Assembly: GCA_963817615.1 (NCBI GenBank)
Contig: CAWFPH010000003.1
Location: forward strand, 30,718-94,717
Length of the DNA stretch: 64,000 nucleotides
Direction of reading: 5' to 3'
Source of the DNA: an uncultured Gammaproteobacteria bacterium
Lineage (GTDB): Bacteria > Pseudomonadota > Gammaproteobacteria > Steroidobacterales > Rariloculaceae
The translations under genes and the position numbers were made by a program. Positions 5,009-58,255 of the stretch are shown here, piece after piece. Position 1 is the stretch's first letter, and each line of letters starts with the position of its first letter. The notes below the pieces were generated by a model. It searched no databases. It saw only the letters and a program-made list of their open reading frames with translations, and had not been told where the DNA came from.

Positions 5009-5023
5009 GAGATTGGGAGCGCG

Positions 5024-16414: not shown

Positions 16415-16896
16415 ATGGCGGTCGACGCATTCTTGAAGATGGACGTGAAGGGCGAGTCGGTGGTGGATGGCCACGAAGACGAGATTCAGCTATTGTCGTG
16501 GTCGTGGGGCATGAGCCAGACCGGGACCACTCACCGCGGAACTCGGGCGGCGGCGCGGGCAAGGTGGACGTACAGGATCTCAGCTTCACACATCACGTCG
16601 ACGCCGCGTCGGCCAATTTGATGCTCGCGTGCTGTAATGGCAAACATTTTCCCGAGGTAAAGCTGACCGTGCGCAAAGCCGGTGAGAAGCCTCTGGATTA
16701 CCTCGTGATCGACGCTGACCGATATGCATCATCACGTCGGTTGCTCCGGGCGGCGCAAGCGGCGACGAGCTGATCACCGAGCACGTCACCTTGAATTTCG
16801 CGAAATTCAAGGTCTGCGTATCAACCGCAAGACAACAAAGGTGCGAAAACGGGCGGAGCCATCGAGGTCGAGTACGACATCGCGAAGAACAAGTAG
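16415..16896 (+). pseudogene. hcp: Hcp (TssD), about 4 frame changes
   Basis: Strong SD (AGGAGAAGAAGCC-ATG). MAVDAFLKMDVKGESVVDGHEDEIQLLSWSWGMSQTGTTH, then GGGAGKVDVQDLSFTHHVDAASANLMLACCNGKHFPEVKLTVRKAGEKPLDYLVI, then IITSVAPGGASGDELITEHVTLNFAKFKV, then YQPQDNKGAKTGGAIEVEYDIAKNK*. Changes near 16540, 16714, 16728, 16817. Confidence 0.85.
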
Positions 16897-25996: not shown

Positions 25997-26024
25997 TTGA
26001 CACGCTCCGGGCCGTCCGTATAAG
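25997..26024 (+). promoter_or_regulatory. sigma70-type promoter candidate upstream of vgrG
   Basis: TTGACA (25997-26002), 16-nt spacer, TATAAG (26019-26024). About 100 nt upstream of the vgrG ATG. Confidence 0.45.
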
Positions 26025-26127
26025 TAGAAGCGTGCCGCCGTCTACGCGACGCCGACGAGTGCGGTACGCCTGGCACCGCAACAACAACGACAAACTGACG
26101 AGGCGCGGCCGATTTGCGGCCTATTTC

Positions 26128-28359
26128 ATGAGCAGCCAGCCGGTCCGCGTAAAGACGCCCCTCGGAGAGGATCTTGCTGTTCAGCGGCATGGAGCTTACG
26201 GAGGAGCTTGCGCGCCTGTACTACTGCGAGCTCGATCTCTTGAGCGCGAAGGAGGACATCGAGCTCGACGACGTGCTCGGCAAGGACGTGACGGTCGAGA
26301 TCGATCAACCGGACGCGGACACGCGTTATTTTCACGGGATCGTCACGGAATTTGCGCAGACGGGTCGTGAGGGCGACTATGCGCGTACACGGCGATCGTG
26401 CGTCCGTCATTGTGGTTCCTGACTCGCACCGCGGACTGCCGTATCTTTCAGGAGCTCAAGGCTCCGGAGATACTCAAGGAGGTATTCGACGATCACGGAT
26501 TTCCCGTGAAGTTCTCCCTGAGTGCCACCTATCGGAAGTGGGAGTACTGCGTGCAGTACCGCGAGACCGACTTCAACTTCGTGAGTCGGCTCATGGAGCA
26601 GGAAGGCATCTACTACTTCTTCGAGTACGAGTCCGGGAAAGCACACATTGGTACTCGCAGATGCCTACGGTGCCCACAACGCCATTCCGGGGTACGCGAA
26701 GATTCCGTACTTTCCCACCGTCCGCGAACGTCGTCCGCGAGCTGCATATTTACGATTGGCATTTGCGGCGCTCGGTGCAGTCCGGGGCTTATGTGCTGAA
26801 CGCGTTCCACTTCAAGAAGCCGCGCGCGGATCTCAAGGCGAACAGCTCCGTGTCGCGCGACCATGCATTGGCGGAGCACGAGGTCTACGACTACCCGGGC
26901 GAGTATTACGAGAAGTCGGAGGGTAACGAATACGCGCGCACGCGCATCGAGGAGCTCCAAGCGCAGTACGAGCGCGTTCGGGGCCAGACCAACGTGCGTG
27001 CGCTGTTCCCGGGCGGTCTATTCGAGCTCACGGACTATCCGCGGAAGGACCAAAACCGCGAATACCTCGTCTTGTCGACGCGCCACAGCTTGCACCTCGG
27101 CGACTATGGCAGCGCGGGCGGCGAGGGGCTCACGTATAGCTGTACATTTTCGGCGATGAGCAGCCGCGAGCCGTTTCGGCCGGAGCGGACCTCTCCGAAG
27201 GTGTTCGTGCAAGGGCCTCAGACCGCGATCGTCGTCGGGCCCGTCCGGAGAAGAGATTCACACGGACGAGTTCGGCCGGGTGAAGGTGCAATTTCATTGG
27301 GATCGCTACGGCAAGTCCGACGAGAACAGCTCCTGCTGGATACGCGTGGCGTCGGTGTGGGCCGGTAAGCAATGGGGCGGCATCGCGATCCCGCGAATCG
27401 GCCAAGAGGTCATCGTCGACTTCATCGAAGGGGATCCGGATCGCCCGATCATCACGGGCCGCGTCTACAACGCCGACAACAAGCCGCCGTACGACTTGCC
27501 GGCGAACAAGACGCAGAGCGGCATGAAGAGCCGCAGCTCGAAGGGCGGCTCGCCGGCGAATTTCAACGAAATCCGCTTTGAAGATCTGAAGGGCTCGGAG
27601 GAGATGTACATCCACGCCGAGAAGAACCAGACGATCATGGTCGAGAACGACAAGGCGGAGACGGTCGGCCACGATAACACGGAGAGTATCGGTCACAATG
27701 AAAAGATCGACGTCGGGAACAATCGCGATAAGACGGTCGGCGTGGACCAGTCGGAGAAGATCGGCAGCAACAAGACCATCTCGGTCGGCTCGAACCATAC
27801 CGAGACGATCGGCGCCAACAAGAAGCTCGATGTCGGGAGTAATCACACCGAAACCGTTGGCTCGAACATGACGATCACCGTGGGCTCGAACCTCACGGAG
27901 ACGGTGGCGATCAACTATGCGGAAACGGTCGGCGCGGCCATGGAGCTTACCGTGGGTGCCGCAATGACCGAGACGGTCGGCGCGAACAAGACCCAGACGA
28001 TCGGCCACGACAAGTCCGAGACGATCGCCGCGAACAAGACCGTGAGCGTCGGCAAGGACGAATCGGTCACGATCGGCAAGAACGCCTCCGCGAGCATCGG
28101 CGAGTCGCGAACGTTGTCGGTCGCCAAGGATCAGAACGTCGACATCGGCAAGAATCTCGTGATCAACGCCGGTGACGCGATCACTATCCAGACCGGCAGC
28201 GCGACGATTTCGATGAAGAAGGACGGCACGATCTCGATCAAGGGCAAGGACATCACGATCGAAGGCAGCGGCAAGATCAACGTGAAGGCGTCCAGCGACG
28301 TCACGATCAAGGGATCGAAGAGTGCTGCAGAACTGATTGGACGAGTATGCGGAGGCTGA
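26128..28359 (+). pseudogene. vgrG: VgrG spike protein, about 6 frame changes
   Basis: Colinear VgrG sequence across 6 ORF pieces: RYFHGIVTEFAQTG; LWFLTRTADCRIFQ; YCVQYRETDFNFVSRLMEQEGIYYFFE; GPQTAIVVGP; GRVKVQFHWDRYGKSDENSSCWIRVASVWAGKQWGGIAIPRIGQEVIVDFIEGDPDRPIITGRVYN. A gp5-like beta-helix follows. Changes near 26168, 26385, 26645, 26715, 27245. A probable change near 28320 would give the typical end GSK-VLQN* at 28336. Confidence 0.9.
27658..28179 (+). repeat. VgrG beta-helix: degenerate tandem 24-nt (8-aa) coding repeats
   Basis: About 20 units of x-x-x-T/S-x-x-V/I-G (ETVGHDNT ESIGHNEK IDVGNNRD KTVGVDQS EKIGSNKT ISVGSNHT ETIGANKK ...). This is protein-structural periodicity, not a CRISPR array. 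Confidence 0.7.
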
Positions 28360-28363
28360 GGAG

Positions 28364-28878
28364 ATGAGTCCGTTGGGGTTGGATCAAGTCGAAGCGAGAG
28401 GAAACGATGCGGCGCAAGAGCCGGAGGTTGCGCCGGCCCAGGCTGACCGAATCGCCGGCGTAGTGCTCGGCACCTTGATCGGTTTCAAGGACGGCGGGCG
28501 AACGCCGCTCGTGTTGTTCCCCGGCCAGACGAGCAGCGGCGGCCGTCGCCGCGCGCACGACCGTCGACTTGCACGGTGCGCACATCGGCGGGCCGGTCGT
28601 GCTGATGTTCGAGAACGGCGAGCCGGATCGCCCGATCGTGCTGGGCCGGCTGCGTCAGGACGAGGGCTGGCCGCTCGACGAGCGGCCCGGAAGCGTCGAA
28701 GTGCAGGCCGATGGCGAGCGGCTCGTCGTCGGCGGCGAAGCAGCAGCTCGTGCTGCGCTGCGGCAGCGCGAGCATCACGCTGACCAGGGCCGGTAAGGTG
28801 CTGATCCAGGGGACGTTCGTGCTGCACCGCTCGTCGGGGGTGATGCGGATCAAGGGTGGGTCGATTCAGCTCAACTGA
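28364..28878 (+). pseudogene. DUF6484-like protein (PA0096-like position), 2 frame changes
   Basis: SD GGAGGCTGAGGAG then ATG. IAGVVLGTLIGFKDGGRTPLVLFPGQ / VDLHGAHIGGPVVLMFENGEPDRPIVLGRL / QQLVLRCGSASITLTRAGKVLIQG...IQLN*. Changes near 28540 and 28735. Confidence 0.6.
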
Positions 28879-28918
28879 GCGGAGCGCTTGGACGCGAGCG
28901 GCAGGGTCGGGAGAGCGC

Positions 28919-30026
28919 GTGGAGCTCATCAACGCAACGCGGATGTTGGCCGGTTACACGATGGGCCTGGAGCCCAGCGGGCGCGAGCTGCTCGTCGTGG
29001 TGATCAAGGGAACGTTCCGTTTGCCCGTCAGCCGCCGAGGAGCAACTGCGACTGCACGAGGAGCAGCTGCCGCTCGTGATGGCCGACACGTTCACCGGTG
29101 CGCCGGGATTTCTCGGCCCGATGCACGAGGCGGACTTCGTGCCGCGCAAGAAACAGGTCGACGTACTTTTGCTCGGCAGCGCCTACGCGCCAGGCGGCCG
29201 GCCCGCAACGACGGTGCCGGTCGGACTGCGGGTGAACGGCATCACGAAGACGTTCGCCGTGGTCGGCGACCGGCAGTGGGATGCGGGCATCTCGGGTCTC
29301 GGCATCAGCCCGGCGCAGCCGTTCACGAAAATGCCGATCAGCTACGACCGCGCATTCGGCGGCGTGGATGACCGGAACGAGGACCCCGCGAAGCACGCGG
29401 CGTTCATGCGCAACCCGGTGGGCCGGGGGTTTCGCAAGCACTCCTCGAACGAGCTGCTGACCGGCACGCCGTTGCCGAATACGCAGGAGCTCAACCGCGC
29501 GGTGTCGAGCCCGGACGCCGACTACGCCCCGATGAGCTTCGGCCCGATCGGCCGCGGCTGGGAACCGCGCTACCGCTACGCCGGCACCTACGATGACGAG
29601 TGGCTCGAGAAGCACTTTCCGTTCTTGCCGCCCGACTTCGATGAGCAGTATTACCAGTCGGCGCCGCTCGACCAGCGCTTCGCAGGACCGTTGGGCGGCC
29701 ACGAAGTGACGCTCGTCAATCTCACGCCGGACGGCCGGCGCGAGCTTCAAGATCCCGGCGTTCGAGGCGCCGGTCGTGGTGTTCCCGAAGAGGGGCGAGC
29801 GCGAGGATCTCACCGCGACGCTCGACACGCTCGTGCTCGAGCCCGACGAGGAGCGGCTCACGATGACGTGGCGTCGTAGCGCGGCCGCTCAAGAGGAACA
29901 TGTTCGAGATCGCGCAGGTGCTCGTCGGCAAGAAGGGCAGGGAGTGGTGGCAGCTGCGGGAGGAGGTCACGTTTCCGATTCCCGATCGTGGTCGAGCCGA
30001 TGGTGCGGCCGACGGAAACCGCCTGA
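28919..30026 (+). pseudogene. DUF2169 family T6SS adaptor-like protein, about 4 frame changes
   Basis: GTG start, then (M)ELINATRMLAGYTMGLEPSGRELLVVVIKGTFRLP... and KKQVDVLLLGSAYAPGGRP...FAVVGDRQW, typical of DUF2169. Changes near 29035, 29740, 29875, 29985. Confidence 0.8.
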
Positions 30027-30036
30027 GCGTCAGCCG

Positions 30037-31068
30037 ATGCCTGCACCGCCCATTGCGATTCGCTCCGTCGGACTCGTCACCTCCGTCGGCTTGAGCGCGC
30101 CGGCGGCCTGCGCTGCGATGCGCTGCAAGATCAGCAACCCCAGCGAGACGCGGTTCATCGATTCGGCTGGCGAGTGGATCATGGCGCATAGCGTGCCGCT
30201 CGAGAACGCCGTGGCGCGGCTTGACAAAGCTCGCGAAGATGGCGGCGCTTGCTATCGATGAGTGTCTCTCCGAGGTTCCGCCGGAGAAATATGCCGCGTT
30301 GCCGTTGTTGCTCTGTGTCGCGGAGCGGGAGCGGCCGGGCCGGCTCGATGGACTCGACGATCGACTTTTCGACGACATTGCGAGCGGAGCTGAGATATGT
30401 GTTTCGCACGCGACGTCGGCCGTGATTGCGAACGGACGCGTGAGCGTTGCGGTTGCTCTCGCTCATGCGCGGCGAATGATCTCATGAGCAGCGAGTGCCG
30501 CAAGTACTTGATCGCGGCCACCGATTCGCTACTCACGTGGCCGACGTTGTCGCACTTCGAGCGCAACGATCGCTTGCTCACAGCGCAGAATTCGAACGGT
30601 TTCATGCCCGGAGAAGGGGCTGGCGCGTTACTCATCGCGGTGCCCAAGGGCGGAGAGGAGCTGCTCTGCACCGGACTGGGATTCGGCGTCGAGAAGGCGC
30701 ACATCGATTCGGGCGAGCCGTTGCGCGCCGATGGCCTCACGACAGCGGTCAAGGCATCGCTCGCGGACGCCGGGCGCAATATGCACGACTTCGATTTCCG
30801 GATCACGGACATCTCTGGGGAGCAGTACTACTTCAAGGAAGCGTCTCTGACGTTGGGTCGGACGCTCCGCAAGCGCAAGGAGGAATTCGACCTCTGGCAT
30901 CCCGCCGAGTGTATCGGAGAGAGTGGCGCCCTAGCCGGGATGCCGGTCGTGGGATTGGCTGACGCGGCGTGCCGCAAACGGTACGCGCCTGGTCCGAATA
31001 TCGTCGCTCACCTCGCGAACGACGCTGGCGAGCGTGCGTCCATGGCTCTCCAATTTCGCGCGAGCTAG
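30037..31068 (+). pseudogene. beta-ketoacyl-synthase-like (thiolase-fold) protein, PA0098-like, 2 frame changes
   Basis: MPAPPIAIRSVGLVTSVGLSAPAACAAMRCKISNPSETRF... is a KAS-type N-terminus. Later NGFMPGEGAGALLIA and ITDISGEQYYFKE...LWHPAECIGESGALAG. Changes near 30222 and 30480. Confidence 0.7.
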
Positions 31069-31070
31069 CG

Positions 31071-31314
31071 ATGGGCAACCAGGTCTACGCGAACACGATT
31101 GGAGATATGGTGCAAGGCCGCGACCGATCTGCAGCTTCCCGACGTGTGCCTCAGACCGGCCGCAGTTCCTGCGACTTCGCCGGGCGGGGCTTCGGATGCG
31201 ACGGACGGCTCGACAAGCGTGAAGAGCTCCGGTCAGGAGGTGATGCTCAAAAACAAGTCTCACTTCAAATGTCGCCTGTGTGATGACGGCGGGGGTGTGC
31301 CTTTGCGAAAGTGA
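31071..31314 (+). pseudogene. remnant of a DUF4150 (PAAR-like) gene N-terminus
   Basis: MGNQVYAN...(frame change)...KAATDLQLPDVCLRPAAVPATSPG--ASDATDGSTSVKSSGQEVMLKNKS aligns with residues 1 to about 85 of the intact gene at 31659 (MANKVFAN...KAASGKSICAFPDVCMTPPQTPATPPGVPIPYPNTALASDTTDGSSTVKISGQEVVLKNNS). It has an internal deletion and is truncated near 31310. Confidence 0.6.
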
Positions 31315-31605
31315 TGGGCTCGTGCACGCGATTAAAGACGCTCCGCCCGATGCACGATGCGACGCGCACGTCTTTTGGTTTCCGATTCCGGATATGTCGG
31401 GCGAACAGTACTACTTCAAAGAAGCGGTACGTGCTTGGGTTGCGTACTCCGACAGAAGAAGGCAAAAAAGGAGAAGTTCGATATCTGGCATCCGGCTGAA
31501 GCCATCGGCGAAACGGCTGCAATGATCGGTATTGTCGTGCTCGCCGTGGCCGATGCGGTCTGCCGCAAGGGCAATGCGCCGGGAGGCGACATACTGGCCC
31601 CGTAG
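31310..31605 (+). pseudogene. remnant of the C-terminal third of a KAS-like gene (second copy)
   Basis: DGLVHAIKDA...DMSGEQYYFKEA...KKEKFDIWHPAEAIGETAAMIGIVVLAVADAVCRKGNAPGGDILAP* aligns with DGLTTAVKAS...DISGEQYYFKEA...RKEEFDLWHPAECIGESGALAGMPVVGLADAACRKRYAPGPNIVAH of 30037..31068. Lacks an N-terminus and has at least 2 frame changes. Confidence 0.6.
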
Positions 31606-31658
31606 ATCGAACGACAGCAGCCTGCGCGCGCCATCGGTTTGGCGCTGAGGATTTCCGA

Positions 31659-32831
31659 TTGGCCAATAAAGTCTTCGCGAACAACATGGAAGTCGCCTGC
31701 AAGGCGGCAAGCGGTAAGTCCATTTGCGCCTTCCCGGACGTTTGCATGACTCCGCCGCAGACTCCCGCGACACCGCCGGGTGTGCCGATTCCGTATCCCA
31801 ACACAGCGCTCGCCTCGGATACGACAGACGGATCGAGCACCGTGAAGATTTCCGGCCAAGAGGTCGTACTCAAGAACAACTCCTGCTTGAAGCGAAGCAG
31901 CGGCGACGAAGCAGGTTGTGCCCCGCAGAAGGGGGTCATGAACAGTCAGAACATGGGCAAAGTTTTCTTCGTGCAGTGGTCGATGGATGTGAAAGTCGAA
32001 GGAGAGAATGTTGCGCGCCACCTCGATCTCACGACTCACAACCATGGTTCGAATGCGAACGAGGCGGCGCCTTGGCCCTATATCGATACACTGAACATGC
32101 CGGCGGACCATCCGTGCAAGAAGTCTGTGGATGAAGAGAAAGCAGCGTGTGATCCAAACAAGACTCCGCCTGGGTCCAGTGCAAGAGCGGATGGCCGGGG
32201 TTTGAATTGCACGCCGGCGTGCGCCAAGGCGAGGGCCTGTGCCTTGCCCAAGAAGAAGGATGACAAGAAGACTTGCTGCGCTCCTAATAGCACGGGAGAT
32301 CATCTGGTAGAGGTTGCCTCCTTCACACAAACCGGTGGGCGCGGCGGGCTGGACATCGGCTCCTTCGACAGCCTTGCGCAAGCCGGTATCTCCGTCTCAG
32401 CACCGAATCGTCCTGCGAGTACCGGCGGTTTCCAAGACTCGGTGGACCTCGCCAGCCCCAAGAGCAGACCCCGACGGTTGTCCGATTTCGAAGACTACGA
32501 CGACGAAGAAGCACCGACAGCGTGTGTACGACCGCCCGGAGCGGGCACGAACCACAATCGCATGCAGGCACACCGCGATTCGATTAAACGCAGCCATCGC
32601 ACCGGCAACGGCGGAGTGCCATTGCATGTATTCCCCACAGGCGAAGAGTCACATTGGACATACGACGATGCGGCCAAGGCAGGCGTGGCGTCGCACCAGC
32701 GCGAGAATCCGCATTGCAATCCGGAGTGCACGCGAAAGCAACTCGACGCGTATCACCATGAGGTGATTCCGGGAGACAAGCCAGCGGAGAAGAACGCGAC
32801 ACCAGTGCGGACTTACATCCCGAGGAATTGA
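31659..32831 (+). CDS. DUF4150 (PAAR-like) T6SS effector with C-terminal toxin domain, Tse7-like architecture
   Basis: Intact 390 aa. TTG start supported by a GAGGA SD 7 nt upstream and by homology with the ATG of the remnant copy. N-terminus is the DUF4150 PAAR-like fold (to about ...DLTTHNHGSN), followed by a Cys-rich linker. The C-domain has His-rich motifs (TGDHLVEV, NHNRMQAH). Confidence 0.8.
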   Translation: MANKVFANNMEVACKAASGKSICAFPDVCMTPPQTPATPPGVPIPYPNTALASDTTDGSSTVKISGQEVVLKNNSCLKRSSGDEAGCAPQKGVMNSQNMGKVFFVQWSMDVKVEGENVARHLDLTTHNHGSNANEAAPWPYIDTLNMPADHPCKKSVDEEKAACDPNKTPPGSSARADGRGLNCTPACAKARACALPKKKDDKKTCCAPNSTGDHLVEVASFTQTGGRGGLDIGSFDSLAQAGISVSAPNRPASTGGFQDSVDLASPKSRPRRLSDFEDYDDEEAPTACVRPPGAGTNHNRMQAHRDSIKRSHRTGNGGVPLHVFPTGEESHWTYDDAAKAGVASHQRENPHCNPECTRKQLDAYHHEVIPGDKPAEKNATPVRTYIPRN

Positions 32832-33736
32832 ATGTGATCTCATCATCCATCACAGATGGCATCTCGCTGGGGCCGGGACGGAGTGTCGTGGCGATTCAGC
32901 CCTACGATTCCGATGCGAGTGAAGTCGAGTTCGAAAGTATCGTGCTGATTGTCGCGGACGGGGAGGTGCGTTCGACTCTGAAACCACCGTTTGTGGTCTC
33001 GAGTATCGTCGAAAGTACGACAGGGGAAATATTGATGCTCGGTCGCTTGGGTCACGTCGCCTTGCTCACGAACGACGCGTTCGATGAAGAGCGGATCAGC
33101 GGCCCAGACGCGTTGGGTTTCCTCACCGACATTCGAGCTATTGGACAGGCAATCTACGCGACTGGAATGCGTCGCCAGGTGTACGTCCGCAAAGGAAGCA
33201 GTTGGACGAGGGCCGATGTAGGCGTTCGCGATGAGAGTAATAGCGTTGAGCACGTAACCGGGTTCCGCTCGATAGACGGGCCGTCGTCACAGGACATCTA
33301 CGCAGTCGGTCTAGATGGTGAGATATGGAATTGTCTCGCGGGTGTCTGGCAAGCAGTGCAGTCACCGACCAACGTGATCTTGGAACAGGTGCGGTTGGGT
33401 GGGCAGGGCGAAGTGTATGCAGCGGGACAGGCCGGCGTTCTCTTGCGTGGAGTACGGCATGCATGGTCCGTCATCGAGCAGCTGCAGACGGAGGAAGATT
33501 TCTGGGGGCTGGAGTGGTTCAACGGCGCTCTGTATGTTGCAACAGGAGCAGAAGTGTTTCGTCTGCTGCCGAGTGAGTCGCAATTGGCGCGCGTAGAGAC
33601 TGGCGGAGCTTCGTTCGCGAGGTTGCGAGCAGGGCACGCCGCGCTCTGGTCGTTCGGACCGGACGACGTCCGCTGGACCGCCGATGGCAGGACGTGGCAT
33701 CACGTGGCAATTCCAAAGGCCCATCGACTTCCGTAG
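32828..33736 (+). CDS. candidate cognate immunity protein (repeat-rich, possibly beta-propeller-like)
   Basis: 302 aa. Start overlaps the effector stop (TTGA). No signal peptide. Repeated D-I-Y-A-V/G-G...G-x-V/I-Y-A-x-G motifs suggest propeller blades. Low GC, like the effector. Confidence 0.55.
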   Translation: MNVISSSITDGISLGPGRSVVAIQPYDSDASEVEFESIVLIVADGEVRSTLKPPFVVSSIVESTTGEILMLGRLGHVALLTNDAFDEERISGPDALGFLTDIRAIGQAIYATGMRRQVYVRKGSSWTRADVGVRDESNSVEHVTGFRSIDGPSSQDIYAVGLDGEIWNCLAGVWQAVQSPTNVILEQVRLGGQGEVYAAGQAGVLLRGVRHAWSVIEQLQTEEDFWGLEWFNGALYVATGAEVFRLLPSESQLARVETGGASFARLRAGHAALWSFGPDDVRWTADGRTWHHVAIPKAHRLP

Positions 33737-33755
33737 CTATACATCAGAAAAGACA

Positions 33756-33840
33756 GTGATTTCACGCTCGCCGATCGCAACCGTTCTGACTCAGCATATT
33801 GCTGATGCAGCCGTGCTGTGGCAGCAGCGAAATGTAACTA
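33756..33840 (+). pseudogene. short remnant of a TIGR02270-family N-terminus
   Basis: VISRSPIATVLTQHIADAAVLWQQRNV aligns with AGCPIPTVASQHAEESVILRNVRSV at the start of the full gene about 190 nt downstream. The similarity then ends. Confidence 0.45.
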
Positions 33841-33943
33841 CTGATAATGCGAATGAGGATCCACGAATCGAAGACGTCTGCCGAGCGCTTCGTTGTCCCA
33901 ACTTGCGCCTATCTCGTGCTCGAAACCTGGAATGTTGAGCCCA

Positions 33944-35212
33944 ATGCCCCATCCCACAGCAGGATGTCCGATTCCGACTGTAGCCTCTCAGCACGCCGAG
34001 GAATCGGTGATCTTGCGCAATGTCCGCTCGGTCCTGGTGAACTCCGCGCACGTGCGGCTGCTGCACCTCCTCCGGCTCGACAACCGACTTGCTGCTCATC
34101 TCGATGGATTGGCGGTGACAGCCGAGTTTGGCTGGAGCGTGTGCGAGGCTCAACTTGACGTCCCGAGTATCGGTTCGCTATTCGTGGCGACACAGCGCGC
34201 TATCCAAGATGCCGACTCTTCGAGGCTCGAACGATTCCTTCGACTTGGAGAGACGGTATCGGTGCTGGAGCCAGGCCTTGTTTCGGCTTTCGGCTGGACA
34301 TCCGCACAATTCCTACGCGGCACGGTCAAGGCCCTGCTTGAATCCTCTACTACTTTCCGTCGTCGCGTCGGCATTTCCGCGTGCGCCATGCACGCAGTCC
34401 ACCCCGGTGCCCCTCTTGACGCAGCTCTGCGAGACCCTGACACTGCCCTACGTGCGCGCGCACTGCGCGCAATCGGCGAGCTCGGTAGGCTGGATTTGAG
34501 CACCGCCGTGCGGCGCGCAGTCGATGACCCCGACGAGACCTGCCGCTATTGGGCCGCGCGGTCCGCTGTTTTGCTCGGTGACCGCGGCAAAGGGCTCAAC
34601 CTGTTAATCGGCGGGTGTCGAGCACCGGGACCGTGTCGCGAGAGTTCGCTTCACCTTGCGCTACGTGCGATGGAGTTGCCTGCCGCGCGCGAGTTACTGC
34701 GCCTCATCAGCAGCGAGCCGAAAGACGTACGAGCACTCATCGAGGCCGCAGGCATCGTCGGCGATCCGCACTACGTGCCCTGGCTCATCAAGCAGATGGG
34801 CGACCCGAAGCTCAGCCGCCTCGCCGGCGAATCGTTTTCGCTCATCACTGGGCTCGATCTGGCGTATCTAGATCTCGATCGCCGCCCCCCCGAGGGCGAA
34901 GAGCTCGGACCGACGGCGGATCCAGACGACGAGAACGTCGCAATGGACCCGGATGAAGGGCTGCCGTTGCCCGACCCCGAAAAACTCGCCAAATGGTGGG
35001 AGGCGAACCGGCACGCATTCGCCGTCGGCACACGCTACTTCATGGGCCGGCCGCTCAGTCGGGAACACTGCCTGCAAGTGCTCAAAGAGGGTTTCCAGCG
35101 CCAGCGCGCTGCGGCCGCGCTCTATCTATCGTTGCTGCAACCGGGAACGCCGTTGTTCAACTGGCGCGCGCCGGCGTGGCGGCAGCAACGCTGGCTTGCG
35201 AGTATGCGTTGA
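33944..35212 (+). CDS. TIGR02270-family (HEAT-like repeat) protein, PA0101-like position
   Basis: ORF 33893..35212. The start is probably ATG 33944 (MPHPTAGCPIPTVASQHAEE...). LDNRLAAHLDGLAV and repeated D-P-D-x-x-x-R...A motifs are typical of this family. Intact. Confidence 0.7.
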   Translation: MPHPTAGCPIPTVASQHAEESVILRNVRSVLVNSAHVRLLHLLRLDNRLAAHLDGLAVTAEFGWSVCEAQLDVPSIGSLFVATQRAIQDADSSRLERFLRLGETVSVLEPGLVSAFGWTSAQFLRGTVKALLESSTTFRRRVGISACAMHAVHPGAPLDAALRDPDTALRARALRAIGELGRLDLSTAVRRAVDDPDETCRYWAARSAVLLGDRGKGLNLLIGGCRAPGPCRESSLHLALRAMELPAARELLRLISSEPKDVRALIEAAGIVGDPHYVPWLIKQMGDPKLSRLAGESFSLITGLDLAYLDLDRRPPEGEELGPTADPDDENVAMDPDEGLPLPDPEKLAKWWEANRHAFAVGTRYFMGRPLSREHCLQVLKEGFQRQRAAAALYLSLLQPGTPLFNWRAPAWRQQRWLASMR

Positions 35213-35328
35213 CTGGTGACGACGCTCGTGGGCCATCGACCTAGGTTTCGCACCGGCCAACCGTTACCCTTGCAGCCGATGTTGGCAACAGCGAGTCGCT
35301 CATTCGGATTGATCGTTGCGAGGCAAAC

Positions 35329-35518
35329 GTGCTGACAGCGCCGGCCGTCCCCGTCGTCTTCGTCGCCATCGCGGTGATCTTCGTGACCCTCGCGCTGCGC
35401 GATTTTCTCAAAGGCGAGTCGAAGCTGAGCCCCGCACGCAGCGCCTGGCTGCGCGTTGCGACGATTTTCGCCGTGATCGCGATTGCGCTCGTTCATCGTG
35501 AACACGTTCATGAGTTAA
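35329..35518 (+). CDS. small two-TM membrane protein (3' end uncertain)
   Basis: GTG start with GAGG 5 nt upstream. MLTAPAVPVVFVAIAVIFVTLAL...AWLRVATIFAVIAIALV gives two hydrophobic helices. This frame has no stop until 36279, but coding signal moves to the 35537 frame. The end given assumes a frame slip to TAA at 35516-35518. Confidence 0.3.
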
Positions 35519-35536
35519 CGGATCCGAGAGGCGAAG

Positions 35537-36279
35537 ATGGGTGGAAAGACACCTGGCCCGGTCGGCCAAACCGACAAGGCGCAAGACATCGACGATGGCA
35601 CGCTGGCGCGCACGAGCACGCCGAAGCCGGGTCCCAACAATGGGGCAGCGGGGCAAACCGCCGCCACGGACCACGCGCTGTCCGTGCCGCTCGACGTCTA
35701 TCTGATCAATCTCCAGATCGTCGCCGAGGAGATCGAGAGCTACGAGGTCTCGGTCGGGAAGGAGAAACGGACGCAGCGAAGGAAGGTTCGCAAGGTCGTC
35801 GAGACGGTGAAGAGCGGTCAAACCGAAGAGACGATCAATGCTTCGATCGCCCGTGCCAACGAGATCTGGAAACAGGCCGGTATCGCATTTCGACTACATC
35901 AACTCGTGCCGAAAGACGTCGAGTTCGACACGAAGACGGTGAGCGAGGAGGGTTTTCTGTCGCTGGTTGCCAGCTTGAAGCTGCCGGCCTGCCGGGACTC
36001 AGCATGATGTTCGTGCGGAATTTCGAGAGCCCGCATCTCGGCGGCCAGGCCGTGGACTCGCTCGGCGCGGGAATCGTGACCTATTTGGGGAATCCGACGC
36101 AGGGCAACACCCTGGCTCACGAGCTTGGCCATCTGCTTGGGCTGCCCGACCTGAAGCACGTCGCAAACTCGATCAAGAACCGCTACAACTTGATGTACGA
36201 GGCCAGCGCGGCGGGGTACGAGATCACGGCCGACCAGGCGAAGACCGCAGTGGAGAGAGCCAAGCTAAAGCAGAATTAG
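35537..36279 (+). pseudogene. zinc metallopeptidase-like protein with HExxHxxGxxD (snapalysin-type) motif, 1 frame change
   Basis: ATG with a GAGAGG SD and an in-frame TAA just upstream. MGGKTPGPVGQTDK... has no signal peptide. After a change near 35990 it reads MMFVRNFESPHLGGQAV...GNTLAHELGHLLGLPDLKH...*. Confidence 0.55.
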
Positions 36280-36380
36280 CGGGTCGACGGAGGCACGAAC
36301 GGCAGAACCGAACTCGGCGTAGCGATAGATTGTCGCGTAGAAACACATAGTTGGCAACTTGATCTCATGCAGTTTCCGCC

Positions 36381-36409
36381 TCGCCAATCGATACAGATCC
36401 CGCTAGTAT
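36381..36409 (+). promoter_or_regulatory. weak sigma70-type promoter candidate upstream of fha
   Basis: TCGCCA, 17-nt spacer, TAGTAT. About 37 nt upstream of ATG 36446. Confidence 0.25.
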
Positions 36410-36445
36410 CACGAACTTGCCGCTAATTGCTCCGGGGAGCCATGA

Positions 36446-37798
36446 ATGCCGCTCGTGTTGCGAGTCTTGAGTTCGCAGAACCACACGACGGCTTTCGACG
36501 GCGCGAAGACCTTCGAGACGGACGGGACCATCGGCCGGACGGTCGACAACGATTGGGTGCTGCCCGATCCTGAACGTTTCATCTCGAGCCGCCACGCGGC
36601 GATCAGTTATGAAGGCGGGCGCTACTTCATCAACGATCGCAGCACGAACGGCATTGGCCGTCAACGGCCGCGAGATGGAGAAGGGCGGCCGTCTCGAGCT
36701 CAAGATCGGGCGACCACATGACCATCGGCGGCTATCAGATTGCCGTCTCGGTCGAGGGTCCGGTTGCGCCGGGGCCGATCGGCGCTGCATTCGCCTCGGC
36801 TCCTCCGCCGGCCTCGATCGACGACATTTTTTCGGACCCCAACCCTTTCGCGGCTACTCGCGAGGCGCCAATGCCTCGATCCGCTGGTGGCGCTCGGCGG
36901 CGCGGAAGGGCCGCGTCCCAGTGCCGCGCCGGCGCCGCGTACGGTGGACGATCATCCCGCGCGGAGTCGGAGTTCTTCGAGCCGCCGCGCATGATCAAAG
37001 CGCCGCCACCGGCCAGGCGGCCGGCAGAGATTCCGGAGGACTGGGACTCAACGGGCTTCTCGGCGGCCGCGGCCGGCTGCGCCCTCGGGCGCGCCGACCG
37101 AACCTCCCGCTCCGCCGCCCCCGCACGGCGCTTCGACGCCTCCCCCTGCGGACTGGGCCGCCGAGCAAACTCCGTCGCCGCCGCCGGCGAGAACGATGGC
37201 CTCCCCGGCACAGCCGGTCGATGTCTCGGGCTTGCTGCGGGCTGCGGGCATCGATCCCGCCGCGGCCGATCCAGCGCTAGTAGCGTCTCTCGGCGAGGTG
37301 CTGCGAGTCGTCGTCGAGGGCTTGATGGGCGTGCTCAAGGCGCGTGCGGAGATCAAGAATCAGTTCCGGGTTGCGATGACGACGCTGAAGCCGCTCGACA
37401 ACAACCCACTGAAGTTCTCCGTGGACGCAAACGACGCTCTGTTCAATTTGTTCGGAAGAAAAACAGCTAGTTTTCAGTCACCTGTAGATGCTTTCAGAGA
37501 TGCGTTCGAAGATCTAAAGGCGCATCAAATGGCAATGATGGCGGGTATGCGGGCGGCATTCACGGAGCTGATGGGGCGGTTCGATCCCGATCAGTTGCAG
37601 GAGGCTTTCGACCGCGGAATGAAGCGCGCTGCGATCCTCGATGTCATCAACCGGACGAAGTATTGGGACCTCTATCGAGAGATGTACAAATCGCTCGGCG
37701 ACGACGATTCGAGCTTCAGACGGCTGTTCGGCGACGAGTTCGCTCAGGCGTACGAGGAGCAGATGCAGCGTCTTACGGCGCTGCGCAGAAGGCGGTAA
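36446..37798 (+). pseudogene. tagH: Fha/TagH FHA-domain T6SS scaffold protein, 3-5 frame changes
   Basis: FHA core GTIGRTVDNDWVLPDPERFISSRHAAISYEGGRYFINDRSTNG, then AVNGREMEKGGRLELKIG, then HMTIGGYQIAVS, a Pro-rich linker with IPEDWD, and an intact C-domain (ORF 37196..37798). Changes near 36655, 36712, about 37065, and perhaps 36870 and 36960. Confidence 0.8.
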
Positions 37799-41030: not shown

Positions 41031-44000
41031 ATGTTGAAGCTGCTCAAGAACCCTTGGCTGGTCAGGATTCCGGCCATGGTCGCTCGTGAGCGTGCTGATC
41101 TACGTGCTCGGTCCGTTGTTCGCGTTCGGACGCTATCGGCCGCTCGAGAGCGTCGAGGCACGCTACTTCGCGATCTTGATGGTCCTCGTTATTTGGCTCG
41201 TCCGTTTCGTGCTGAAGGCGCAACGTGCGGCGAACGCCGACAAGAAAATGGCGAACGCCATGGTCGCCGCGCCGATCACGCCTTTGCCGGCGGCCCCGGA
41301 CATGTCGGCGGAGGAGTTGAAGACGATTCGGGATCGCTTCGAGGAAGCGCTCGGTATCTTGAAGAAGTCTCGAGGCCGCAAAGGGCCGGCTCAGCCTTTA
41401 CGACTTCCTTGGTACATGATCATTGGCCCGCCGGGCTCTGGAAAAACCACCGCGCTCTTGAATTCCGGCTTGCGCTTTCCTCTCGCCGACCGGTTCGGCC
41501 CGGAAGCAATCCGCGGCGTCGGCGGCACGCGAAATTGCGATTGGTGGTTTACCGACGATGCGATCTTGATCGATACGGCGGGCCGATACACCACCCAGGA
41601 CAGCGATGCAAAGATCGATCAGGCGGGCTGGCTGGGGTTTCTCGATCTACTGAAGAAGCATCGCCGCCGCCGACCGATCAACGGGATTTTCGTCGCGATC
41701 TCCGTCGCCGATTTGCTAACGCAGTCCGAGCAGGAGCGTCGTGCGCAGGTGCTCGCCATCAAAGAGCGCGTCATGGAGCTCGACAAGCATTTCGGCATAC
41801 GCTTCCCCATCTACGTTTGTTCACGAAGTGCGATCTCGTCGCGGGCTTCACGGAGTTCTTCGAGGATCTTGGGCGAGGCGATCGAGAGCAGGTCTGGGGC
41901 GTCACGTTTCCGTACTCGGACGATGCGTCGGCGAGCCCCGCCGGCCAGTTCGGCGCGGAGTTCGATCGGCTGATTCGCCGTCTCAACGAGCGGCTGATCA
42001 GCCGTATCAGCCAAGAGCGCGACGTGCGCCGCCGCGGGCTGATTCACGGCTTCCCGAAGCAAATGTCGAGTCTGAGGGACGGCTTCACGTCGTTCGTCGG
42101 CGAGGTCTTCCAAAGCAGCCGCTACGAAACGAGCCCGCTGCTGCGCGGCGTCTATTTCACGAGTGGAACGCAGGAGGGTACGCCGATCGACCGGCTGATG
42201 AGCGTGCTCGCCAAGACGTTTCGCATCGATGCGCAGGCGTTGCCGCCGCAAACCGCGGCAGGCAAGAGCTTCTTCATCGCGGACGTGCTTCGGAAGATTG
42301 CGTTCGCCGAAGCGGGTCTGGCCGGAACGAATCGTCGCTTCGAGCTGCAACGCGCTTGGTTGCAGAAGGGGGCGTACGTCGGCGTGATGCGGGCTCGTTG
42401 CGTTGGCCGCCACTGCTTGGGTGTTCGCCTATTTCCACAATCGCGCGCTTCGTCGAGCGGGTCGGGGCGCAAGCGCGCCAGGCCCGCGAAGCGATCTCCG
42501 CAATCGACAATCGCGACTACGATCCGCTGTCGGTGCTTGCCGGCTCTGGACGCGGTTCGGCAGTTGCCGGGCGGCTATGCTGATCGTGAGCGCGGCGGCT
42601 CCTGGTTCGGCGATTTCGGCCTCTCGCAGCAGGACAAGATCGGCGACGCCGCCGTCGCTACTTACCGGCGGCTGCTCAATCAGTTGTTCCTCTCGAGAAT
42701 CATGCTGCGGTTGGAGGATCAGCTGCAGCGCGGCGGACCTACGCCCGACTACACTTACGAGGCGCTCAAGGCCTACCTAATGCTCGACTCACGTGAGCAC
42801 TACGATGCGGACGCGATCAAGGCGTTCGTGCAGCTCGACTGGGACACGAATCTGCAGCGCCAGGTGAGCACCGAGCAACGTCAGGCGCTTGCGGCGCATC
42901 TGAAAGCCACGTTCGAAGAACGGCCGTTGCCGTTGCCGTTGCCGCTCGATGATGCGGTGGTCGCGCAGGCGCGCCGCGACGTTCGGGCCATTCCACTCGA
43001 GGATCGGATCTACGGACGGTTGCGCCGCACGTTCCAGGGCGACGTCCCGGGCTTCAACATTCGCGACGCGGCGGGCGGCGCTACCGCCGAACTCGTCTTC
43101 GTCCGGAAGAGCGGTGCACCGCTCGCTCAAGCGCTCCCGCCGCTGTTCACCAAACAGGCGTATCAGCAGGTATTCGTCGCGAAGAGTCGCGAATTGACTT
43201 CGGAGCTTGCCGGTGAGTCGTGGATACTCGGCGACCAGCAGACCATCGATGCCGCCGAGCAGGAGCGCCTGCTCGCGCGCGTGCGCGAGCGGTATTTGGA
43301 CGAGTTCGCTCGTCTTTATAGCGACGCGATTCTCGACGTCGGCCTGGCGCCGTTCAACACGCCCGAGGAGGCTGCACGCATCTTCAATATCCTGTCGCGG
43401 CCGGAGGACTCGCCGCTCCTGTTGTTGCTGCAGGAGATCTCGCGGCAGACGTCGCTGGACAAGGTCGACGACAAGGGCGGGTTGGCTGCTCAGGTCGGCG
43501 GCAAGGTGACCCAGTTGCAGGAGCAGCTGAAGCAGGTGATCGGCGCGGCCGGTCAGGCACCGCAATCCCTGACCGACGCGCTCGTCCGCAACGGCGTCGA
43601 GCAGCGTTTCCGAGCGCTGAATGCGCTCGTGCAACCCGCCGCCGACGGCAAGCCGCGGCCGGTGGACCACTTGCTCGACCTGATGCGGCAGCTCTACCAA
43701 TACATGAGCGTTGTCGCGAGCGAGGCGGCCGGTGGTGCGATTCCGCCGCAGGTCCAGCAGCAAGGTCAGGCCGTGCTGCAACAGTTTCGCGCGGAGGCGC
43801 CGGCTCAGCCCAATATGCTCGTGGGCGATTTGCTGCAAACGGCCGCGGCCCGAACGGCCGCGCTCACGACCGGAGGATTGCGCGCTTACCTGAACGACCT
43901 TTGGCAGTCCGGGCCGCTCCAAGTGTGCCGCCAGGCAATCGCCAATCGATACCCGATCGTCCGCGGCTCGGAGCAGACCATCCGTCTCGACGACTTCGGC

Positions 44001-44589
44001 GCGTTCTTCGGCTACGGCGGCCAGATGGACCGGTTCTTCAACGAGCATTTGCGCCAGTACGTCGACGCAACGAGCCTCGCCGTGGCGCACGCGGCAGACC
44101 GGCAACGTGCCGATCCAGCTCTCGCAAGCGGCGCTGCGGGCGTTCGAGAACGCCGACGTCATCAAACAGACGTTCTTCCGGCCGGGCAGCATGATGCCGT
44201 CCGTTTCCTTCGACCTGCGGCCGCTCGAAATGGACCCGGGTCTCAGCCGGTTCCTACTGTCGCTCGAAGGCAAGGTGGTGGTCTACGAATTCGGACCGCG
44301 GACCTCGACGCTGATGCAGTGGCCCGGTCCCGAGCCGGGCACCGAGGTGCGGCTCGAGTTCCGTGACCGGCAGAACGGTCAGACCGCGATGGAGCGCGTC
44401 CAAGGACCCTGGGCGTGGTTCAGAGTGCTCGACAAGTCGCATCTCGCGCCGACCAACGTCCCCGAGCAATTCCAGGTCTCGTTCTCATCTGGCTCGCGCT
44501 CGGCTCAATACGAGCTCATCGCACGCAGCGCCTTCAATCCTTTCGCCCTGACGCAGCTGCAACAGTTCGAGTGCCCCGGTTCTCTCTGA
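41031..44589 (+). pseudogene. tssM: TssM (IcmF), about 6 frame changes
   Basis: ATG 41031 with a GGGAG SD. TM helices, Walker A GPPGSGKTTALLNSG, DTAGRY, and a long IcmF periplasmic domain ending FECPGSL*. Changes near 41082, 41818, 42385, 42445, 42540, 44075. Confidence 0.9.
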
Positions 44590-44590
44590 G

Positions 44591-46072
44591 ATGGCCGAGT
44601 TTGGCGTCCCGGGGTTTTTCGGCAAGCTCCCGTCGCGCGGCGACTTCGTCAGTCGGCGCTTGCCGCCCGAGTTCGTAACCGGCTGGGATCGCTGGCTTCA
44701 GGCCGCTCTTGCGGCCAGCGAAGCGAAGCTCGGCGAGCAGTGGCTCGACGTGTATCTGACGAGTCCAATTTGGTGCTTCGCCTTATCGCCGGGGATCTGC
44801 GGCGACGTCGGCTATGCGGGCGTGATGATCCCGAGCGTCGACAAGGTCGGCCGATACTTTCCGCTCGTCGCGGCGCTTCCATGTGGCCGCGCTGCGCCGT
44901 TGGTTGTGCGCCGCGAGCTCGCTGCCTGGTATGCCGAGGCACAAGACCTGCTGTTGGAGACACTTGCCGACCCGCCGCTCGATGTCGAACAGCTCGATGT
45001 ACGGCTCGCGAATCTCGGTGCAGTCGGCGAGGTCACGTCGCTCGAATGGACGCCGCCGGCGACGTTTGACGAGCCGCGATCGCTTGCTTGGCGGTTTCTC
45101 GTGGCGGGGGCCACCTCCGGCGAGCTCGATTCGGCTGTGCTGTCGAGCATAGTCGTTCGCGACTCCGGTCGCTGCGGCGTCTGGTGGACCGAGGGTTCGG
45201 AGCGCGTCGGCGACTGTGTGCTGGTCGTGCCGGGGCTTCCGACCCCCGCCGCATACGGAGCGATGCTCGACGGCGAGTTCGACCCGACGGAGTGGAGCTG
45301 CGGCGTACTGCACGCCGGCGCCGCGTCTGCCCCGCCGGGTCAGGCAGTGTCGTCGGCCGCGCGCAGCGACACGGGTAAGGTGCGTGCAATCAACGAGGAC
45401 TCGTTCGCATGCAGGGACGACCGCGGCGTCTGGCTCGTGGCCGACGGTCTGGGCGGCCACCAGGCCGGCGATCTCGCGAGCCGCATGGTCGCGAGCATTG
45501 CCGACCAGATGCCGGCGTCGGGAACGCTCGAGGATCTCGTCGAATGTCTGAGACGCAACGCGCGTGTCGTCAACGGCTGTCTGCGAGTGCTGGCGGAGCT
45601 CAGCTCGGAGGTCACCTCGACGGGAAGCACGCTGGCCGCGCTGATCGTGGCGCGATCGAGAGCAGCCGCACTCTGGGCCGGCGACAGCCGCGTCTACCGG
45701 CTGCGTGCTGGGCAGTTGCAACAGCTCACGCGCGACCACGCCGAAGAGGTCGATGGGTGGTCCGCCGCCGAGCCGCACAATCGCGCCGTGACGCGCGCCG
45801 TCGGCGGCTCCGACGATTTGAACATCGACGTAGTCTATACGGGAGTCCAATTCGGTGACCGGTACCTGCTCTGCACCGACGGCCTATACACGACGATCAA
45901 CGACTCGGACATCGTACGAGCGCTCTCTTTGGACTCCATCGAGCACGCTTGCGATGAGCTCCAGCGAATTGCGCTCGAAGGCACGGCGAGCGACAACGTG
46001 ACGGCGGTCATCGTCCACGTGGCGGGTACCGCAGAACGCGAAAACGCGCCGGAGGACGGCGCACATGGATGA
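44591..46072 (+). CDS. tagF-pppA: TagF-PppA fusion (TagF domain plus PP2C Ser/Thr phosphatase)
   Basis: Intact 493 aa. The N-terminus FFGKLPSRGDFVSRRLP...YLTSPIWCFAL is TagF. The C-half has PP2C motifs (RSDTGKVRAINEDS, VADGLGGH, GDSRVYR, CTDGL, SDNVTAVIV). Confidence 0.85.
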   Translation: MAEFGVPGFFGKLPSRGDFVSRRLPPEFVTGWDRWLQAALAASEAKLGEQWLDVYLTSPIWCFALSPGICGDVGYAGVMIPSVDKVGRYFPLVAALPCGRAAPLVVRRELAAWYAEAQDLLLETLADPPLDVEQLDVRLANLGAVGEVTSLEWTPPATFDEPRSLAWRFLVAGATSGELDSAVLSSIVVRDSGRCGVWWTEGSERVGDCVLVVPGLPTPAAYGAMLDGEFDPTEWSCGVLHAGAASAPPGQAVSSAARSDTGKVRAINEDSFACRDDRGVWLVADGLGGHQAGDLASRMVASIADQMPASGTLEDLVECLRRNARVVNGCLRVLAELSSEVTSTGSTLAALIVARSRAAALWAGDSRVYRLRAGQLQQLTRDHAEEVDGWSAAEPHNRAVTRAVGGSDDLNIDVVYTGVQFGDRYLLCTDGLYTTINDSDIVRALSLDSIEHACDELQRIALEGTASDNVTAVIVHVAGTAERENAPEDGAHG

Positions 46073-47891: not shown

Positions 47892-47959
47892 GCCGTGCTT
47901 CGTCGCGGTGCGCAGTTCGAGGCAAAATGCGCCTCTCGTTGCGACGTCCGGCCGTTCGT

Positions 47960-47988
47960 TTGACATCCAATTTGTCGAGCATTAGTGT
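47960..47988 (+). promoter_or_regulatory. sigma70-type promoter candidate for the 48.0-55.4 kb operon
   Basis: TTGACA (47960-47965), 17-nt spacer, TAGTGT (47983-47988), within a locally AT-richer stretch. Confidence 0.4.
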
Positions 47989-48034
47989 GCTTGGGCCGAA
48001 CAAACAAAAATCCAAACCGCGGGCCACTTCTCCC

Positions 48035-49666: not shown

Positions 49667-49715
49667 AGCTTCGTTGCCACTCGAGAACGACTTCAGTGAC
49701 AAAGGAACGATAGTC

Positions 49716-56429: not shown

Positions 56430-58251
<1,822 letters not shown>

Positions 58252-58255
<4 letters not shown>

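Follow-up and report, generated by a model that had tools for sequence, protein, structure and literature searches.

Why should an intact toxin gene lie between truncated copies of its own neighbours? The question is raised by an uncultured gammaproteobacterium (contig CAWFPH010000003.1), of which a stretch of 64,000 nt, hereafter the window, was analysed and supplies the numbering used throughout (L0xx denotes related loci; P00xx and P01xx, the deposited proteins compared). A type VI secretion system (T6SS) gene cluster in the window houses a Tse7-type effector island comprising vgrG, DUF6484, DUF2169, a PRK06147/KAS-like gene, a PAAR-like–GHH2 toxin gene, an immunity gene and TIGR02270 (Pfam, NCBIfam, tblastn), in which stubs of KAS-like, PAAR-like and TIGR02270 genes surround the toxin and immunity genes. 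Exchange of T6SS effectors and immunity proteins decides which strains coexist, and it is usually inferred from clean replacements in which the mechanism is hidden. We consider it probable, at about 60%, that the 3' part of the resident effector gene and its immunity gene were replaced, through two non-homologous joins, by a ~2.5-kb fragment of the equivalent locus in a distant lineage. Both junctions are preserved in the window, which therefore shows directly how far the fragment extends and that homologous crossovers are absent. The features concerned are listed below, with 'resident' used in the sense of this interpretation.

30037-31068, plus strand: resident KAS-like gene (PRK06147, TvpD-like); NCBIfam PRK06147, 240 bits, on 30397-31068.
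31071-31303, plus strand: 5' remnant of the presumed resident PAAR-like (DUF4150) effector gene, codons 1 to ~80; self-BLASTN, PAAR profile, 68 of 80 residues alignable.
31291-31304, no strand: left junction; alignments to resident-type loci, KAS profile and direct reading of the sequence.
31304-31648, plus strand: 3' remnant of a second KAS-like gene (PRK06147 position ~232 to the end); self-BLASTN, NCBIfam, profile.
31659-32831, plus strand: intact Tse7-like effector gene, 390 aa; PAAR-like (DUF4150) N-domain and Tox-GHH2 HNH/EndoVII nuclease domain; TTG start with GAGGA 5' of it.
32834-33736, plus strand: immunity candidate, 300 aa; in at least 13 loci, homologues are flanked by PAAR/GHH2 toxins and TIGR02270.
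33747-33842, plus strand: remnant of a TIGR02270 N-terminus, ~32 codons; profile match (E = 4.7e-7) and spacing as in L036.
33843-33910, no strand: unassigned 68 bp holding the right junction; no similarity found, homology to L067 starting at 33911.
33911-35212, plus strand: resident TIGR02270 (HEAT-repeat) gene with ATG at 33944 and 33 bp of its own upstream sequence; TIGR02270, 316 bits.

Diverged partial duplicates on both sides of the cassette

The original prediction, made from the letters of the sequence, had proposed that 30720-31320 and 31310-31900 are related, and self-BLASTN of 26000-37000 indeed aligned 30711-31268 with 31293-31891 (612 columns, E = 4e-32), the sole non-trivial self-match in that interval apart from internal repeats of VgrG. 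The first copy consists of the 3' third of the KAS-like gene and the first ~80 codons of a PAAR-like gene, and the second of a 3' fragment of a KAS-like gene and the start of the intact toxin gene. The copies are homologous and diverged, as had been predicted, at 60.6% identity and not the two thirds estimated by eye. Profiles of the PAAR N-terminus and the KAS C-terminus, built solely from other loci, recovered both copies: the former matched 31099-31269 (E = 1e-13) and 31659-31898 (E = 5e-47), and the latter matched 30715-31062 (E = 6e-49), 31313-31435 (E = 5e-7) and 31417-31596 (E = 5e-12). The last two matches fall in two different frames, and the corresponding open reading frames (ORFs) of the KAS remnant match NCBIfam PRK06147 at model positions 232-287 and 277-327 of 349.

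Both stubs are degenerate. The PAAR stub has one frameshift near 31097 and is missing ~10-12 codons, including the conserved PIPYPN segment. The KAS stub (55-57 of 111 residues identical to homologues) is missing its first ~230 codons and shows two frameshifts in almost all alignments, and it retains its own stop (TGA, 31646-31648) 10 nt 5' of the toxin start. This degeneracy, namely the loss of PAAR codons and the truncations, exceeds what frame errors explain. Identity between the two copies (60%) does not exceed their identity to orthologues in other genera (58-70%), and their nearest neighbours differ: the PAAR stub is best matched at 47 of 68 residues (69%) by L017, L021 and L014, with 59% to L036, whereas the PAAR domain of the intact toxin is nearest to L036 (85%). 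These relationships agree with the proposal that the copies are xenologous and not the product of a recent tandem duplication.

On the right side of the cassette, a profile of 33 TIGR02270 N-termini matched 33747-33842 (profile positions 6-37, E = 4.7e-7), with the next match among the 1459 six-frame peptides of the window at E = 2.6. This stub begins ~10 nt past the immunity stop, which is the place of the TIGR02270 start in the canonical locus L036, and lies ~100 bp before the full gene. Self-BLAST of the DNA (26000-37000) and the full-length NCBIfam model (hmmscan) both missed it; thus, a remnant that had been placed at 33756-33840 (~28 codons) is upheld by the N-terminal profile but has no self-BLAST match to the full gene. 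The full TIGR02270 gene itself is where it had been predicted (33944-35212), with an intact frame and a score of 316 bits against an NCBIfam cutoff of 206.8. At 401 aa, the deposited TIGR02270 protein P0163 would start with the GTG at 34007, 21 codons past the ATG at 33944; a conserved N-terminal motif present in all homologues, IPTVASQHAEES, is lost with that start, and the ATG at 33944 is therefore the more likely one.

Related loci lack the KAS/PAAR duplicate and carry other cassettes

The same gene order was found in 34 genome loci, retrieved with the TIGR02270 protein, and 45 metagenome loci, retrieved with the C-terminal part of KAS, across which the toxin C-termini and immunity genes vary between KAS and TIGR02270. 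The distance from the KAS stop to the toxin start is at most ~80 nt in related loci versus a stub-filled gap of 590 nt in the window. A second KAS-3'/PAAR-5' segment, or small genes between KAS and toxin, are absent from ~70 related loci; the stubs are therefore not conserved small genes, and their earlier description as scars holds. The canonical, intact locus L036 (JGI metagenome 3300048997) aligns twice with the window, collinearly in both cases: its positions 132-4213 correspond to 27171-31301 and its positions 3619-6064 to 31324-33726, so that 3619-4213 of L036 is present twice. Gene order and spacing inside the block are canonical. The resident left flank has its nearest relatives in L068-L070 (~70.4% nt identity from 28.5 kb on, the alignments ending at 31301-31302), and those of the block are other loci.

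Among relatives of the full TIGR02270 protein, the nearest (P0164, 80% aa identity) is encoded in L067, which matches the window at 33911-35209 (L067 1797-3092, 81.5% nt) and again at 35320-35757 (73%). Similarity to L067 vanishes 5' of 33911, where that locus has a GHH-like toxin C-terminus and a 304-aa immunity-family gene that both differ from those of the window, an example of the alternative toxin/immunity pairs that the original prediction had expected between conserved KAS-like and TIGR02270 genes. Since homology to L067 starts at 33911, the break with the nearest relative falls at the proposed right edge of the block; since the TIGR02270 genes of the two loci differ by 0.56 synonymous substitutions per site (dS), with a ratio of non-synonymous to synonymous changes (dN/dS) of ~0.21, the difference in cassette arose within that divergence.

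Partial duplication of TIGR02270 is found in two other loci. L011 (10001-12611) has a full TIGR02270 gene followed by a 5'-truncated second copy (11531-12611) that is 63% identical at the nucleotide level. L026 (1-11224) consists of tandem modules, the first with KAS, a PAAR toxin and two immunity-family genes and the second with DUF2169, KAS, a PAAR gene and a full TIGR02270 gene; between the modules lies a 5' fragment of TIGR02270 (4996-5360) with 65% nt identity to the full copy at 10005-10366. These diverged partial duplicates indicate that such scars recur in this type of locus.

Junctions and base composition

At the left junction, alignments to resident-type loci end at 31301-31302 (L068 reaches 31328) and homology to KAS 3' ends begins within 31294-31334, the exact base differing between loci; the two sides abut without filler, and the assignment of a few bases between them is ambiguous. 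The right junction lies within 33843-33910, in a stretch (33737-33943) of 51% G+C content, and the 68-100 bp between the TIGR02270 stub and the start of the full gene match neither any locus nor the rest of the window. Contig L035, from a Logan k-mer assembly made independently from run ERR11523651, is identical to 32264-33926 and thereby includes the immunity gene, the TIGR02270 stub and the spacer, starting inside the toxin gene and ending 18 bp before the TIGR02270 start. Its right end may reflect either a branch of the de Bruijn graph, as from co-existing strains with another cassette, or low coverage.

The joins are offset from homologous positions by ~590 bp and ~200 bp, with both flanks partly duplicated, and crossovers at aligned homologous flank positions, as in a clean replacement, were not found at the block. 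Besides the diverged duplicate, no direct or inverted repeats bracket 31304 and 33842. The block has no recombinase-like ORF and lacks the hallmarks of a mobile element or site-specific insertion (insertion sequence, integron cassette or integrase island). A sigma-70-like promoter and a relevant terminator were looked for, and neither was found.

The G+C content of the block (31304-33842) is 58.3%, with 58.8% in the toxin gene and 58.9% in the immunity gene, compared with 63.5% in VgrG-KAS, 63.7% in TIGR02270 and 65.2% in the window; at third codon positions it is 0.65-0.67 in the toxin and immunity genes versus 0.79 in the 3' part of the resident KAS gene. The block is thus lower than its flanks, as hand counts had suggested, but at 58.3% and not the 48-56% counted then, and beside a left flank of 63.5%, a smaller contrast than those counts implied.

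Origin of the block

The arrangement would be explained by entry of ~2.54 kb of linear DNA (31304-33842) that a distantly related lineage carried at the equivalent locus and that extended from codon ~232 of the donor KAS-like gene, across its toxin and immunity genes, as far as codon ~32 of the donor TIGR02270 gene. This DNA would have replaced the resident effector gene from codon ~80 on and the resident immunity gene, with both of its ends joined by illegitimate recombination (end-joining or microhomology) at points offset from the homologous positions; flanks that are only ~60% identical are too diverged for homologous crossovers, which argues for illegitimate joins. Left behind would be the 5' stub of the resident effector gene and the donor stubs of the KAS-like 3' end and the TIGR02270 5' end, which would have decayed afterwards through deletion of the PIPYPN segment and changes of frame. 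The new toxin gene still has its TTG start and a Shine-Dalgarno-like GAGGA, and it is presumably read within the vgrG operon and its product loaded on the resident VgrG by resident chaperones. The internal order and spacing of the block, the partial duplication on both sides, the comparison with L067 and the base composition all fit one event, although the single event, the direction with the block as the incomer, the mode of joining and the route of DNA entry are what we infer from the scar. The core of the original prediction was a foreign block that carried the 3' end of a KAS gene, a toxin gene with its immunity gene, and the 5' end of a TIGR02270 gene, and that was joined non-homologously within the resident PAAR-like gene and shortly 5' of the resident TIGR02270 gene; it is sustained by collinearity, divergence, the L067 flank and the scars.

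Several observations weigh against this interpretation. Neither parental arrangement is seen directly, since no relative exceeding 85% nt identity turned up for either the block or the left flank, and a search of the collections gave no close donor (best immunity homologue, 56%; best toxin, 82% aa). The TIGR02270 stub is too short for phylogenetic placement or for naming a donor lineage, the 68 bp at the right junction match nothing, and the dip in G+C content is real but modest, cargo genes often being low in G+C anyway. The window probably comes from an error-rich long-read assembly, so that frame changes in the stubs say little about decay, and the Logan contig covers 32264-33926 only and does not reach the left junction. 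The source moreover resembles a long-read soil metagenome-assembled genome (MAG; 2.03-Mb contig, nearest relatives uncultured Gammaproteobacteria, many of them MFD), with frame interruptions at many places in the window, edd and tssM included. These last features would also be expected if the cassettes of two strains had been merged in series into a chimeric consensus (false haplotypic duplication), and the stop of the Logan contig at 33926, ~18 bp before the TIGR02270 start, could mark a strain branch. We consider such an artefact improbable because an assembler would not overlap copies that are just 60% identical; because the block, at 2.5 kb, is shorter than typical long reads, single ones of which should cover both junctions; and because the Logan contig independently confirms the immunity gene, the stub and the spacer. 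A haplotype switch, furthermore, could not create the ~30-bp deletion in the PAAR stub or its truncation at a non-homologous, non-canonical point, and a similar partial duplicate of TIGR02270 occurs in L026, whose contig name (k141_7736007) resembles that of a MEGAHIT short-read assembly.

A deletion in an older tandem array is also unlikely, if slightly less so. The ancestor would have had a module A (KAS_A, toxin_A, immunity_A) followed by a module B (DUF2169_B, KAS_B, toxin_B, immunity_B), and loss of the DNA from codon ~80 of toxin_A to codon ~232 of KAS_B would have produced the left scar, the TIGR02270 stub being a separate event. Loci of this type can carry tandem modules, as L026 shows, where a truncated 5' part of TIGR02270 separates the two, and the left junction is clean and free of filler, as a simple deletion leaves it. 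At least two independent events are needed, however, and the TIGR02270 stub of the window stands after the B immunity gene and not between modules, unlike that of L026, which precedes the second module. Module B would still have had to arrive horizontally beforehand, the copies being as diverged as those of different genera, and a deletion alone leaves unexplained why homology to L067 ends at the right edge of the block. The adjacency and shared orientation of the copies could point to an in-situ tandem duplication of the KAS-3'/PAAR-5' segment with long subsequent divergence, but such a history is very improbable, given that the copies differ from each other as much as from orthologues in other genera and have different nearest neighbours, that non-functional stubs would not last through 40% divergence, and that the TIGR02270 stub, the dip in G+C content and the different cassette of L067 would go unexplained.

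We therefore favour replacement by a fragment from a distant lineage. Together with the TIGR02270 duplicates in two other loci, the scar suggests that part of the cassette turnover between distant lineages proceeds by non-homologous integration. More tentatively, and at somewhat less than even odds, cassettes in this type of locus may move by double non-homologous integration between lineages whose flanks (~60% identity) are too diverged for homologous recombination, leaving recurrent, datable partial duplicates of flank genes (those described here and those of TIGR02270 in L011 and L026).

Toxin and immunity genes

The predicted intact PAAR-like toxin gene (31659-32831) stands up to examination: the protein has an N-terminal Tox-PAAR-like/DUF4150 domain (PF13665; 116 bits, residues 21-131, cutoff 31) and a C-terminal Tox-GHH2 domain (PF15635; 33.9 bits, residues 277-366, cutoff 25), and it aligns with the L036 toxin, its best match, without a frameshift or stop (321 of 388 residues identical, 82%). 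PF15635 is also precomputed on the deposited 390-aa protein P0043 and on most toxin homologues. As in L036 and many other loci, the toxin is encoded downstream of vgrG, DUF6484, DUF2169 and PRK06147. A recent transfer, as its 82% aa identity to L036 beside neighbours at 57-64% might imply, was rejected, since dS between the two toxin genes is saturated and dN is low (0.136); the conservation of the protein therefore reflects constraint and not recency.

The immunity candidate has an alternative TTG start at 32828, which overlaps the toxin stop. It matched no Pfam family, and apart from the deposited protein P0001, which is 100% identical, its best homologue has 56% identity. Its earlier designation as an immunity gene gains support from the position of its homologues, directly 3' of PAAR/GHH2 toxins and 5' of TIGR02270, and we regard it as the putative cognate immunity gene of the GHH2 toxin, the functions of toxin and immunity protein both being predicted from sequence. 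No second immunity-family gene lies between the toxin gene and TIGR02270 or elsewhere in the window, and hence no orphan immunity gene has been retained. G-x-(I/V)-(Y/W) segments recur in the immunity protein, and designed Kelch-like six-bladed propellers match it weakly (E ~0.002), which suggests that this family, which lacks a Pfam entry, may comprise beta-propeller immunity proteins for GHH2 toxins.

Accessory genes, frame changes and assembly quality

The accessory genes 5' of the resident KAS-like gene are:

26029-28333, plus strand: VgrG spike gene of the resident module; Phage_GPD, Phage_base_V and Gp5 repeats (Pfam, ORF fragments), frameshift-aware alignment to the VgrG of L004.
28390-28875, plus strand: DUF6484 (TvpC-like) gene with three frame changes; 102 of 161 residues identical to the L036 DUF6484 protein, weak Pfam DUF6484 matches.
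28901-30039, plus strand: DUF2169 (TvpA/Tap-like chaperone) gene with four to five frame changes; Pfam DUF2169, 248 bits.

These three genes and PRK06147 (TvpD) are all full-length, each with two to six frame changes that are possibly consensus errors. The resident VgrG frame is broken about six times in the alignment to L004, and the KAS-like gene, which had been described as full, is complete in length but not a single open frame, with shifts near 30208 (+1) and 30480 (+2) and tblastn frames in the order 1, 2, 1. Frame-split genes occur at 13200-45000 and 56500-58300 and comprise TssA, TssC (14856-15374 and 15352-16353), Hcp (16415-16621 and 16498-16773), TssF, ClpV, VgrG, DUF6484, DUF2169, KAS, an FHA protein, TssM (IcmF_C in another frame, 43894-44589), the gene after TIGR02270, and edd (N-domain in ORF 56524-58926, C-domain at 57542-58255). 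The changes are mostly +1, and the corrected alignments from VgrG to KAS contain no in-frame stops. Pseudogenization confined to the T6SS cluster was considered and rejected, as the housekeeping gene edd is split as well. ORF 56524-58926 (800 aa) joins the Edd N-domain to a KDPG aldolase (Eda) domain and is either an Edd-Eda fusion or an artefact of a frame change.

Most frame changes are probably consensus errors of a long-read MAG, real decay being the alternative. The nearest relatives of the phosphoenolpyruvate carboxylase are uncultured Gammaproteobacteria, many of them labelled MFD, whose MAGs we take to be nanopore assemblies, and matches to the MFD loci L002, L006 and L011 are split in a similar way. 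Across 3.5 kb, the toxin, immunity and TIGR02270 genes are free of frame changes, compared with ~3 per kb in VgrG-KAS, which is striking beside VgrG-KAS but not beside the lower rate elsewhere in the window. If the vgrG and chaperone genes were real pseudogenes, a stronger variant of the double-integration proposal would follow, in which an intact trio of toxin, immunity and TIGR02270 genes persists in a decaying T6SS. We caution that, with so many frame errors in the assembly, calls of 'intact' and 'pseudogene' in the window depend on read-level confirmation.

Downstream of TIGR02270, 35329-36279 encodes a small membrane protein, 68 aa long in L067, and a product that ends in a HELGH zinc-metalloprotease-like motif (weak Peptidase_M66 match), both of them conserved in L067 (3091-3553); the window copy of the membrane protein gene lacks a stop, and the HELGH-motif gene shifts frame near 35990. 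At the 3' end of the T6SS cluster (44591-51383), genes for a TagF-PP2C fusion and a Ser/Thr kinase (46065-47891) are joined by two that are atypical in such company, one for a Sel1-repeat/caspase-like (Peptidase_C14) protein (47837-49666) and one for an autotransporter beta-domain protein (49641-51383).

Comparison with known systems

The vgrG1b island of Pseudomonas aeruginosa (PA0095-PA0100) comprises vgrG1b, a DUF6484/TvpC-like gene, DUF2169/TvpA, PRK06147/TvpD, tse7 and tsi7, an architecture named 'Class II Tvp', in which PRK06147 is TvpD (PMC13373197), or 'synteny type A' (PMC11883445). PRK06147 genes adjoin DUF2169 genes, with Tox-GHH2 as the commonest neighbouring toxin, and their products have been proposed to be adaptors (PMC7714669). 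The position of tse7-tsi7 is polymorphic among P. aeruginosa isolates, the DUF4150 N-domain being kept while the C-terminal toxin and the immunity gene are swapped (Tsd1/TsdI1; PMC9846239). The island in the window has the same gene order and domains, with a DUF4150/PAAR-like and Tox-GHH2 effector like Tse7. It differs in that the whole effector, including the PAAR-like domain, appears to have been swapped and that both flank genes leave stubs; its conserved downstream flank is TIGR02270, and its accessory genes are frame-interrupted.

In T6SS clusters of Vibrio cholerae, effector-immunity modules displace one another sequentially, illegitimate recombination has been invoked, and leftovers of older modules remain as footprints (Kirchberger et al. 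2017, PMC5361080). The model proposed there has a homologous upstream anchor (homology-facilitated illegitimate recombination), with old immunity genes and effector 3' ends pushed downstream into arrays of orphan immunity genes (PMC5361080). As in V. cholerae, modules acquired in a conserved T6SS locus would have replaced resident effectors and left footprints. Unlike in V. cholerae, the window has no orphan immunity gene, the leftover of the resident effector gene is its 5' end and lies upstream, and both flanks are partly duplicated, so that apparently no homologous anchor was used. Jackson and colleagues in 2009 and Koskiniemi and colleagues in 2014, both as cited in PMC5361080, are said to have described C-terminal displacement in the polymorphic toxin loci of Rhs and contact-dependent inhibition (CDI) systems. 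In such systems recombination reportedly occurs in the conserved core and moves the old toxin tip and immunity gene downstream as 'orphans'. The window shares with those systems the diversification of toxin and immunity genes by recombination and the dead fragments beside an active gene, but its join lies outside aligned homology and its fragments are stubs of neighbouring accessory genes.

Agrobacterial vgrG loci with DUF2169/DUF4150 effectors diversify by horizontal transfer and recombination 3' of the adaptor gene, and hot spots and the constraint of cognate partners have been discussed for them; the exchanges were inferred, from gene-synteny networks, to be clean, and a word search of the text (remnant, truncated, pseudogene) found no partial duplicates of flank genes (PMC8546570). 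The stubs of flank genes set the window apart from such clean exchanges, and likewise from those that underlie the tse7-tsi7 polymorphism of P. aeruginosa (PMC9846239). Double illegitimate recombination during natural transformation of Acinetobacter baylyi brings in foreign DNA through two non-homologous joins that replace recipient DNA, as rare laboratory events. Two non-homologous joins replacing resident DNA are likewise what we propose for the window on the strength of its scar. The scar is thus a fresh example of a known process, the turnover of effector-immunity cassettes in a Tse7-type island, with a non-homologous scar that is unusually legible.

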